Below are positions 45,101 through 48,375 of a DNA stretch of 63,350 nucleotides, piece by piece. The stretch lies in NCBI GenBank assembly GCA_042572045.1, contig JBHPFI010000004.1:1-63350 (forward strand). The letters are read 5' to 3'. Numbering within the stretch: the first letter of the stretch is position 1; each line of letters starts with the position of its first letter. Under the pieces are notes generated by a model, which made no database searches, was not told the origin of the DNA, and was given only the letters and a program-made list of their open reading frames with translations. A program made the position numbers and the translations under genes. Source of the DNA: Candidatus Omnitrophota bacterium (GTDB lineage Bacteria > Omnitrophota > Gorgyraeia > Gorgyraeales > Gorgyraeaceae).

Positions 45101-45666
45101 TGAATTTACCAAATAAATTGACAATTTCTAGAATAATCCTGGCAGGCGTTTTTATACTGTCTTTGTTTATTGAAGGGGTAGGGGCTAAATTTGTCGCGCT
45201 TGCAGTTTTTCTGATAGCCTGTATCACAGATTACTATGATGGTTTCATTGCAAGAAAAAATAATATTATAACAGATTTTGGGAGGCTTATGGATCCTATC
45301 GCCGACAAGATCCTGATCCTGGGCGGTTTTTTGGCCTTTGTTGAGATGAAGATAATACCCGCATGGATGGTAATAGTGATCATTGCAAGAGAATTGCTTA
45401 TCACGGGCATAAGGATACTGGCTGTGTCGAAAAAGAAGGTGCTCTCAGCAGAGATGGCAGGAAAACACAAAACAGTTTCTCAGATAGTGGCAGTGTTGTC
45501 TATACTCGTATTTTTGATAATCAGGGATTCGGCTTTTACGTTTCGGTATATAGAGTATTATCATGGAGGCATCTATGCGCTTATGTTGATCACTGTCTTG
45601 ATGACGGTGATATCGGGCGTTTCATATATGCTGAAAAACAAATATATTTTTACAGGTGAGAAATGA
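45100..45666 (+). CDS. pgsA: CDP-diacylglycerol--glycerol-3-phosphate 3-phosphatidyltransferase
   Basis: 'MNLPNKLT', 'TDYYDGFIAR', 'FGRLMDPIADK' and 'GKHKT'. Confidence 0.95.
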   Translation: MNLPNKLTISRIILAGVFILSLFIEGVGAKFVALAVFLIACITDYYDGFIARKNNIITDFGRLMDPIADKILILGGFLAFVEMKIIPAWMVIVIIARELLITGIRILAVSKKKVLSAEMAGKHKTVSQIVAVLSILVFLIIRDSAFTFRYIEYYHGGIYALMLITVLMTVISGVSYMLKNKYIFTGEK

Positions 45667-46106
45667 GACGTTTCTGTGGATTGATCGCGAGCGTTTTTTA
45701 TATAGGTTATACGCCTGTTGCGCCGGGCAGCATAGGGAGTTTTGCGGCGCTTTTTTTGTATTGTTTTATAAAAGATAACCCGTTCTTAATGGGTCTTGGC
45801 ATTGTTGTAGCTCTTACACTTGGTCTTTTAACTACAGGAACGGCAGAGAAATTTTTTGGCGCAAAGGATGCGAGCGAAATAATAATAGATGAATTTACCG
45901 GCATGTTGATTAGTTTGTACCTATTGCCTGCGACCATGGGCTATGTGGTAGCGGCGTTTTTGCTTTTCAGATTTTTCGATATAATAAAGCCTAAGCCTAT
46001 AAAAAATCTGGAAAAGCTGGATGGCTCTCTCGGCATAATGGCGGACGATGTAATGGCAGGAATATATGCTAATCTGATACTGCAGTTTGTCTATAGGGTG
46101 TTATAG
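45663..46106 (+). CDS. pgpA: Phosphatidylglycerophosphatase A
   Basis: 'APGSIGS', 'DASEIIIDEFTG', 'FRFFDIIKP' and 'GIMADDVMAG'. Confidence 0.95.
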   Translation: MRRFCGLIASVFYIGYTPVAPGSIGSFAALFLYCFIKDNPFLMGLGIVVALTLGLLTTGTAEKFFGAKDASEIIIDEFTGMLISLYLLPATMGYVVAAFLLFRFFDIIKPKPIKNLEKLDGSLGIMADDVMAGIYANLILQFVYRVL

Positions 46107-46134
46107 AGACTTTATTTTTCTATATTGTCTTTTT

Positions 46135-46306
46135 TGGTTGCAGGGGTGGGGTTATTCGGCACTGAAACGTTTTGCCGTCAGCTACGGTTTACGGCTCGTT
46201 CTTCTTTACGACTATCGTTTTTAGACATGAACAGAACTCGCCATAAATCCTTGCGGAGACATTTGCCAAAACATTTCTAATGTGCTTCAAGCCCCACCCC
46301 TGCAAC
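46135..46306. mobile_element. ~170-bp long inverted-repeat element with tRNA-3'-end-like arms
   Basis: 15-bp perfect IR GTTGCAGGGGTGGGG (46137-46151) / CCCCACCCCTGCAAC (46292-46306). Nested pair GAAACGTTTTG / CAAAACATTTC. The minus strand ends ...CCCACCCCTGCAACCA. Confidence 0.65.
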
Positions 46307-46338
46307 TCTCCGAATTTCTACGAAGGAGCCCAGCGTTT

Positions 46339-46908
46339 TCAACCCTTCCTTAAATCTTGCGTTATTAATGGCGTGTAGATGGCGCCTTTTGGTGTGAGTG
46401 TACTTTGGAATAAGATGATTTTATCGATTTTAATCTCGTCCTGAGAGCAAAAATCTACTTCATTAAGGAGTTTCATAAGCCCTGGAATATTCTTAGAGGT
46501 CCTGACCCTTCCTAATGTAAAATGGGCTTTATATTCACGATTTTCCCTTTGTGTGCCTATTTTTTCCAGCTCAGTTTCGATTTTATTGCTCAAGGCCTTT
46601 AAGGGTCTTGAGTTGTCGATTCCCATCCAGATGACTCGCGGGCGCTTCATGTTAGGAAATGTTCCTATCGCGGAAAGACGGATATAAAATTCGCTAACAT
46701 TGTCCGTGATAGATTTTAAGACCAAAGATATGTCTCGTATTTTGTTTTCTTGTATATTTCCGAGAAATTTGAGGGTAAGATGCATCTGGTTTTCGGTCGC
46801 CCATTTTATATCCGCGTTGGACCTTTTGAGCTTAGAGATAAGTTCGGAGAGTTTTTGTTTGTTCGGGGGGTCGATTTCTACGGCGATAAAGGCGCGGATT
46901 GTATTCAT
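46339..46908 (-). CDS. thpR: RNA 2',3'-cyclic phosphodiesterase (2'-5' RNA ligase family)
   Basis: 'RAFIAV', two 2H motifs 'HLTL' and 'HFTL', 'RPRVIWMG' and 'QSTLTPKGAIY'. Confidence 0.93.
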   Translation of the reverse strand: MNTIRAFIAVEIDPPNKQKLSELISKLKRSNADIKWATENQMHLTLKFLGNIQENKIRDISLVLKSITDNVSEFYIRLSAIGTFPNMKRPRVIWMGIDNSRPLKALSNKIETELEKIGTQRENREYKAHFTLGRVRTSKNIPGLMKLLNEVDFCSQDEIKIDKIILFQSTLTPKGAIYTPLITQDLRKG

Positions 46909-48174: not shown

Positions 48175-48228
48175 TATATGTAAGATTTAAGCTATAATCA
48201 ATACTTTATTTAATAATATACTCCCTTG

Positions 48229-48301
48229 ATAACTTGATAAATCCTCAATGACAAAAGTTGTCCGCCTCTGGCTGATGGATCAATTTCATGTGTCAAGTTA
48301 G
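48229..48301 (+). mobile_element. Inverted-repeat element, copy D (73 bp)
   Basis: TAACTTGATAAATCCTCAATGACAAAAGT is identical to the reverse complement of copy E. The right arm GATGGATCAATTTCATGTGTCAAGTTAG nearly matches copy C. Confidence 0.8.
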
Positions 48302-48375
48302 CAAGGAATGCCAGGGCCATGAAAAATTTTTTGAAAGAAATTGCAAGAATATGTGTCTTGTATGGCGGGAGGTGA

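Follow-up and report, generated by a model that had tools for sequence, protein, structure and literature searches.

What is the long, structured inverted repeat that lies between pgpA and thpR in this Omnitrophota genome, and does it have anything to do with tRNA? We analyzed a stretch of 63,350 nucleotides (the window), in which the two genes converge across a spacer of 232 nt, with pgsA upstream and cinA and recA farther on. A sequence-only reading of the spacer had proposed a tRNA-derived or tRNA-targeting mobile relic, or a tRNA mimic, whose arms resemble the 3' end of an initiator tRNA and which sits next to the RNA-end-processing enzyme ThpR. Our analysis leads to a different answer: the element is probably a solitary, slightly degenerate copy of a non-coding mobile hairpin repeat of the ERIC/REP-like kind, which we call family A. 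The features of the locus are as follows.

45663..46106, + strand: pgpA (phosphatidylglycerophosphatase A; Pfam PF04608, E 1.3e-38), the upstream convergent neighbor, outside the element
46127..46136, + strand: GTCTTTTTTG, the family's 5' terminal (G)TC plus T-run; copies L015, L052, L016, L039, L019 and L022 begin likewise
46137..46151, + strand: left arm of the closing stem, GTTGCAGGGGTGGGG, 15 nt, 100% complementary; a copy-specific variable stem
46140..46303, + strand: match to covariance model R1 (polar core plus inner closing stem), 141.1 bits, E 2e-31
46182..46187, + strand: CTACGG, 5' side of a conserved internal loop, facing CCTT at 46249-46252; columns C55, T56, C58, G59, G60 and C122-T125 are invariant in 67 copies
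46200..46235, + strand: apical region, variable in sequence and length (columns 78-119 of alignment A1), deleted in short derivatives
46249..46254, + strand: CCTTGC, 3' side of the conserved internal loop and start of helix 4, in invariant columns
46277..46281, + strand: CTAAT, a conserved 5-nt asymmetric bulge; C150, T151, A153 and T154 are invariant in 67 copies
46292..46306, + strand: right arm of the closing stem, CCCCACCCCTGCAAC, read earlier as a plus-strand T-stem and acceptor strand
46339..46908, - strand: thpR/ligT (2H phosphoesterase; PF02834, E 6.7e-26, also PF13563), the downstream convergent neighbor, outside the element

Much of the secondary structure described earlier was confirmed. 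The arms GTTGCAGGGGTGGGG and CCCCACCCCTGCAAC form a perfect 15-bp inverted repeat (46137-46151 with 46292-46306) with 140 nt between them. The motif, with up to two mismatches allowed, occurs three times in the window against 0.23 expected, and none of 100 shuffles reached three. The nested stem GAAACGTTTTG/CAAAACATTTC is 91% complementary, and the stem GTTCT/AGAAC belongs to the conserved fold of the family. The proposed pairing of GCCGT with ACGGC gives way to a different one: covariation across the family supports GTCAGC with GCGGAGAC and TTTACGGC with GCCATAAA instead. The 183 nt of the element fold into a single rod on either strand, with energies of -68.5 kcal/mol (z -5.9) for the + strand and -75.6 kcal/mol (z -7.6) for the - strand. 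The family's sense strand corresponds to the + strand of the window, as a profile search with nhmmer scored 140 bits forward versus 14.5 bits in reverse. The element owes its polarity to the CTAAT bulge, which is opposed by just 1-3 nt (TG) on the 5' strand. We found neither a sigma-70-like promoter nor a terminator-like site in the spacer (46107-46338).

We note some further features of the surrounding DNA. The final codons of pgpA (46086-46102, TTTGTCTATAGGGTGTT) are echoed at 76% identity past the stop codon (46115-46131, TTTTTCTATATTGTCTT), and a fainter TTTCTA word lies to the right of the element at 46312-46320. This echo could be a decayed duplication from the insertion, or could be chance in AT-rich DNA. 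Separately, the divergent spacer between cinA and recA (48224-48306) holds a 19-nt inverted repeat, 84% complementary with 45 nt between its arms, that is unrelated to family A.

We then compared the element with tRNA. The letters on which the tRNA reading was built are literally present, as CCCAC-CCCTGCA-A-CCA on the minus strand and TTCAAGC-CCCAC-CCCTGCA-A on the plus strand, and thpR is indeed adjacent. The structure around them does not follow. A T-arm would need GTGGG before TTCAAGC, where the element has TGTGC, which cannot pair with CCCAC. When the arms were set against the 3' ends of the genome's own tRNAs, the best in-register identity among the 40 that encode CCA was 15/27, a value attained by 9.6% of random 27-mers from the genome that end in CCA (17% with G+C matched) and so at chance level. 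The A72 that had been taken as an initiator signature is not shared by the genome's initiator tRNA (C15:8776-8852), which ends CCCCGCT-A-CCA and thus has U72. ARAGORN detected no tRNA genes in the window, and Rfam returned nothing for the element region at the gathering threshold, tRNA and tRNA-like families included; with E values up to 10 allowed, it gave two low matches to eukaryotic families, both far below threshold, one of which just abuts the right edge of the element.

The family explains what the tRNA-like letters are. The supposed acceptor and T-stem form the closing stem, helix 1, whose sequence differs in nearly every one of the 67 aligned copies yet stays complementary, with both sides varying in all 14 pairs. 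In other copies the place of the supposed T-loop TTCAAGC is taken by CTCAGAC, CTTAGAT, CGAAGAC and the like, and the CCA of the minus strand complements the G(G) or TGG at the end of the family's 5' T-run. A search for further copies, which the sequence-only reading had suggested, was decisive: it recovered many in related genomes. As for ThpR, the PF02834 gene is next door as described, but a functional tie is not borne out. Other copies lie between all kinds of genes, away from thpR, and the cinA-thpR/pgpA loci of ~28 relatives lack the element, so the proximity is incidental. Of the original proposal, the mobile relic survives and everything related to tRNA falls away; a tRNA-derived, tRNA-targeting or tRNA-mimicking element with an initiator-like acceptor end and a link to ThpR is now scarcely credible.

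Two other structured elements were considered and rejected. Because the element is a rod of ~180 nt, we asked about 6S RNA, which is recognized by a match to RF00013 and present as a single housekeeping copy per genome. The genuine 6S RNA of this genome lies elsewhere (G000:C22:2323-2508; RF00013, 87.8 bits), and the element gave no match. Integron attC sites carry conserved R''/R' boxes (RYYYAAC / GTTRRRY) at their ends and stand in co-oriented cassette arrays beside intI. The GTTGCAG...CTGCAAC ends of the window copy are particular to it and absent from other copies; copies of A lie between housekeeping genes in both orientations.

We sought to determine how widely the element occurs. The window genome (1.64 Mb, 66 contigs, 81% complete) holds one copy of A. 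BLAST against 60 relatives returned many copies per genome at 72-87% identity; G034, G020, G033, G012 and G028, for instance, have 7 to >16 copies, with at least 13-16 scored matches in each of G034, G020, G033, G012, G007, G024 and G028-G030. Other GTDB families in the class of the window also gave matches. Among close relatives, copy number ranges from 0 to >16. These numbers, including the single copy in the 81%-complete window genome, are lower bounds, because metagenome-assembled genomes (MAGs) break at repeats. As an example, a scaffold gap (NN) falls near position 1500 of L231 (G034:C30), exactly where sister species carry the repeat; we therefore discarded this apparent empty site in G034 as an assembly gap.

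Wider searches set the limits of the family. A scan for the exact pattern, using one genome per prokaryotic species (GTDB), found at least 120 stretches; among the 80 records listed, nearly all were labeled Candidatus Omnitrophota or Omnitrophica and the rest Planctomycetales or plain "bacterium". The same pattern had no match in 2.9 million viral contigs, and carriage by phage was rejected on this ground. We also built a covariance model, R1, of 161 positions and 32 pairs, and applied it to genomes sampled across the phylum. It matched 72 of 401 genomes (18%) and 55 of 282 genera, with seven candidates scored per genome, so that counts per genome are again lower bounds. All matches fell inside the class of the window, in at least 15 families, with a patchy distribution. 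We found no description of Omnitrophota repeats in the literature. Family A is thus apparently undescribed and confined to Candidatus Omnitrophota.

Each copy of A consists of a polar core of ~146 nt and its own closing stem of 10-20 bp, ~185 nt in total. Because the element is near-palindromic, BLAST strand calls are unreliable, and we therefore took orientation from a profile HMM and the covariance model. The profile of the 146-nt core separated the two orientations cleanly (~135 versus ~25 bits), which establishes that A has polarity. Alignment of 67 copies supports a conserved fold of 43 pairs in five helices. Across the alignment, 89.7% of cells are paired, compared with 72.0% after column shuffling and 39-48% with the partners slid; cells with both partners changed number 575 against 194 in shuffles, and none of 500 shuffles reached the observed value. 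The invariant letters cluster in asymmetric loops, namely CTACGG opposite CCTT and the 5-nt CTAAT bulge; the pattern by which loci were gathered itself built in part of this invariance, although the CTAAT columns lie outside that pattern. The closing stem is near-unique to each copy while its complementarity is kept. Its consensus is ...GCTGAGCCAGGCTGGGG / CCCCAGCCTGGCTCAGC..., frequently with (G)TC and a T-run before it and an A-run and GA(C) after it, so that a typical copy has the ends (G)TCTTTTTG...CAAAAAGA(C). Copies with a deleted center were found in L023, L029 and L054. Mismatches in the core are G-T in 18 cases and A-C in 14; with the two about equally frequent, nothing marks one strand as the folding strand.

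Many copies of A are embedded in a larger hairpin, B (for example L045:11517-11853 in G020 and L042:13811-14248 in G034, among many others). From outside to inside, B consists of a variable outer stem of ~25 bp, a conserved GCCTC on the left and GCGTC with a small hairpin on the right, a variable 8-bp stem, and then a conserved GAGCGGGCACGGTGTC opposite GACGAGCGAG, within which A lies. The left part of B thus reads GCCTC..GAGCGGGCACGGTGTC and the right part GACGAGCGAG..CGGAGC followed by the small hairpin and GCGTC. B also exists alone, with a short hairpin tip in the place that A takes in composites, from which we infer that in the composite A sits within the tip of B. One such B+A composite folds as a 337-nt rod (~340 nt in general terms) at -170 kcal/mol (z -11.6), and Rfam gave no match to it.

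We next looked at where copies of A stand relative to genes. In the fetched loci, 87 of 125 copies could be classified by gene context, as follows.

Tandem genes, A in gene direction: 40 copies
Tandem genes, A against gene direction: 30 copies
Convergent genes: 8 copies
Divergent genes: 9 copies

There is no orientation preference of A relative to genes (40 versus 30). The copies lie between ordinary genes and occupy most of their spacers, and six that seemed to lie inside open reading frames resemble over-called frames. No direct repeat flanks any of 62 simple copies, as a target-site duplication would, and no conserved target motif is present at the insertion sites; hence no known transposition chemistry is indicated. 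Within the 1.33 Mb of fetched loci we found no open reading frame between the arms of A that would mark a split copy or an autonomous parent. The element itself has no coding capacity, promoter or terminator.

The junction of the window was compared with that of its relatives. The convergent cinA-thpR/pgpA synteny is kept in ~28 relatives, and none carries A at the junction; this conservation also eliminates a recent inversion of cinA-thpR. The stop codons of pgpA and thpR mostly lie ~0-20 nt apart in these relatives, with a few longer spacers, against 232 nt in the window, which identifies the window copy as a lineage-specific insertion. These observations bear as well on the simplest account of the locus, that the palindrome is a plain bidirectional intrinsic terminator, or arose by chance, between two convergent genes. 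Its position between converging 3' ends and its perfect, G+C-rich stem are what this account would expect. An intrinsic terminator is a short G+C-rich hairpin with a T-run after it on the strand being transcribed. Here 140 nt of conserved, structured sequence lie within the stem, the terminator scan was empty, and the layout of the family is reversed: its T-run stands 5' of the stem and its A-run 3', so the T-run precedes the stem on either strand, which excludes an intrinsic terminator. The presence of homologous copies at over 100 unrelated sites and the short junction in relatives also count against this account, and we regard a terminator or chance palindrome as very improbable.

Sister species within a single genus, with flanks ~80-94% identical, allowed filled and empty sites to be compared, bearing in mind that such differences in occupancy may be gain or loss. 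In G020 a 343-nt B+A insert occupies the exact position at which two genes overlap in G034, and a 438-nt mosaic in G034 corresponds to 21 nt in G020. At one further site, G020 and G029 carry A, G025 and G032 have 0-5 nt, and G030, G028 and G033 carry unrelated palindromes, while G034 has a 29-nt spacer that keeps the GAGCAAA of the right arm. We considered whether the outer stem might be copied from adjoining target DNA, and rejected this, as at this one informative site the 7 shared nt, GAGCAAA, belong to a recurrent end of the form 5' TTTTGCT / 3' AGCAAAA. Since this end recurs in unrelated copies, GAGCAAA fits better as the remnant of an imprecise deletion.

The same comparisons revealed a change of orientation and several replacements. 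Between G005 (L236) and G029 (L232) both junctions are identical, and the B+A interior is inverted: 90 of 152 positions match when it is read in reverse, versus 29 of 49 read directly. The alignment suggests that the interior flipped in place between the inverted outer arms, and such flips would account for the absence of an orientation bias. Sites with A in one species and another palindrome in its sister include L046:11397-11503 and L235 (G033). The replacing palindromes are made of 7-8-nt words, for example AAGGTTAAAGGTGTAAGG...CCTTAAACC or TAGCGTAGAGCGGATAGCG..., and several repeat families appear to compete for identical gene boundaries.

To gauge constraint, we compared the cores of orthologous copies with third codon positions of the flanking genes. 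The cores are 0.75-0.98 identical, versus 0.80-0.92 for third codon positions. Some copies look neutral (0.88 versus 0.874, and 0.817 versus 0.797, for core versus third codon positions), and others are better conserved than third positions (0.979 versus 0.80, and 0.944 versus 0.874). The consensus is nonetheless maintained across families whose ThpR proteins share just 30-45% identity. A consensus that is kept while some copies drift agrees with selection for the capacity to propagate and not for every single copy, and some copies may have a host function. The window copy is a solitary, slightly decayed member of A. It forms 38 of the 43 consensus pairs and has uncompensated changes at three conserved pairs (46180/46255, 46192/46243 and 46168/46273); its 3' A-run is missing, the counterpart CAAAAAGAC being absent and CTCTCCGAAT standing on the right side instead.

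The strength of the fold raises the question of whether A is a functional structured RNA family, either a trans-acting small RNA or a cis element (a 3' UTR or intercistronic stabilizer, a processing site or a protein platform), that occurs as multiplied genes and whose window copy is functional. The invariant asymmetric loops (CTAAT, CTACGG/CCTT), the strong covariation, a fold far more stable than shuffles, a consensus held over at least 15 GTDB families, and orthologous copies that exceed third codon positions in conservation are all consistent with such a role. On the other side, A is found in both orientations relative to flanking transcription (40:30) and in every type of intergenic space, lacks both promoter-like and terminator-like sites as well as a T-run downstream of the stem, and shows no excess of G-U over A-C mismatches that would mark one folding strand. 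Its occurrence is erratic, with 0 to >16 copies among close relatives and 18% of sampled genomes positive, and one and the same site may hold unrelated repeats or nothing. The neutral-like drift of some copies and the uncompensated defects of the window copy also weigh against function. We judge a functional RNA unlikely on this balance, and retain the reading of A as a mobile DNA repeat.

How does A relate to repeat systems that are already known? ERIC/IRU elements of Enterobacteriaceae and Vibrio are imperfect palindromes of more than 100 nt that lie between genes in either orientation and are conserved across genera. Their copy number varies widely between relatives, with internal insertion and deletion variants, and they are not known to have a transposase or an established mechanism of mobility. 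Family A shares these traits, being an intergenic imperfect palindrome of >100 nt, found in both orientations and across genera in variable copy number, but this places it in the same functional class, not the same sequence family. The two share no sequence relation and belong to different phyla. A is also built differently: it measures ~185 nt, its asymmetric internal loops are invariant and its closing stem co-varies rapidly. It differs again in nesting inside a second hairpin repeat to give rods of ~340 nt and in having flipped in place at one site.

REP sequences are 20-40 bp long and combine as two inverted copies into REPINs of ~100 bp, which are mobilized by RAYT transposases of the Y1 HUH type (PMC3116915, PMC3337134, PMC3733652). 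As with REP, BIME and REPIN sequences, A is an extragenic palindrome without genes, its hairpin is held by compensated changes, repeat types form mosaic clusters at shared intergenic sites, and the family persists for a long time within a lineage. Y1_Tnp genes are common in the host genomes, as in REP/REPIN-RAYT systems. Unlike REPs and REPINs, A is a single long polar hairpin of ~185 nt whose ends lack a GTAG or CGTC tag, it is present in tens of copies rather than hundreds, and no Y1 gene flanked by elements was seen in 26 loci.

The last point was pursued across the relatives. Genes with Y1_Tnp (PF01797) are present in 55 of 61 relatives, and one is present in the window genome; their numbers do not track the copy number of A. 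Neither A nor B was found within 1.5-3 kb of Y1_Tnp genes at any of the 26 loci, and we rejected a RAYT/REPIN linkage of A on this ground. The analysis turned up no gene that mobilizes A. The sole Y1_Tnp match of the window genome (G000:C9:447-740) sits within an open frame of 442 aa, and similar frames of 427-485 aa occur in G007, G012, G014, G001, G030 and G057. This frame seems to encode a long, conserved protein that includes a Y1-like domain, and not a typical RAYT of 150-250 aa.

Miniature inverted-repeat transposable elements (MITEs) have conserved terminal inverted repeats, are flanked by a direct target-site duplication, and share their ends with a related autonomous insertion sequence. 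In common with MITEs such as Correia/NEMIS of Neisseria, RUP and MITEAba12, A is small, non-coding and dispersed, is polymorphic for presence and absence, has derivatives with internal deletions, and would fold as a hairpin when transcribed. It departs from them in having no target-site duplication and in that what might pass for a terminal inverted repeat is a variable, compensated stem, the conserved part being internal; nor was a parent insertion sequence with matching ends found in the 1.33 Mb of fetched loci. PATEs of the IS200/IS605 type resemble A in lacking target duplications and conserved terminal inverted repeats, and in that DNA hairpins are likely what is recognized. In PATEs, however, the two subterminal hairpins differ from each other and insertion takes place 3' of a fixed short motif, whereas A has one long hairpin, no target motif and no linkage to a Y1 gene.

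Taken as a mobile hairpin repeat, A would spread as selfish, non-autonomous DNA. A trans-acting enzyme might recognize the folded hairpin, as single-stranded DNA or a cruciform, by its invariant asymmetric loops. Selection at the level of propagation would keep the consensus, while single insertions would drift and be deleted or overwritten. The window copy would then have no tRNA-related role and act at most as a passive, strong hairpin between two converging transcripts. A more adventurous version, which we put forward as a long shot, is that the CTAAT bulge and the CTACGG/CCTT loop are the recognition sites of a dedicated, undescribed, non-RAYT machinery that copies, excises and flips long DNA or RNA hairpins at gene boundaries of this Omnitrophota class, or that the family has been domesticated as a class-wide structured RNA. 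If a dedicated machinery were at work, it would be a new mobility system, or even an RNA-mediated one, given that the ~340-nt B+A rods are viroid-like in shape.

For the pgpA/thpR locus, these results remove a false lead: there is no tRNA mimic here and no substrate of ThpR. For the phylum, the little-studied intergenic repeats of Omnitrophota gain a well-delimited family, with a covariance model, a polarity, invariant loops and a nesting partner, B, and with a record that includes sites filled in one sister species and empty in another, as well as a single flip in place. There are practical consequences as well. Repeats of this kind break MAG assemblies and thereby affect completeness and contiguity, and A-type repeats swell lists of candidate novel structured RNAs and mark gene boundaries with fast turnover. 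The enzyme that moves or maintains A, once found, would give an uncultured phylum a hairpin-specific enzyme acting on DNA (or RNA).
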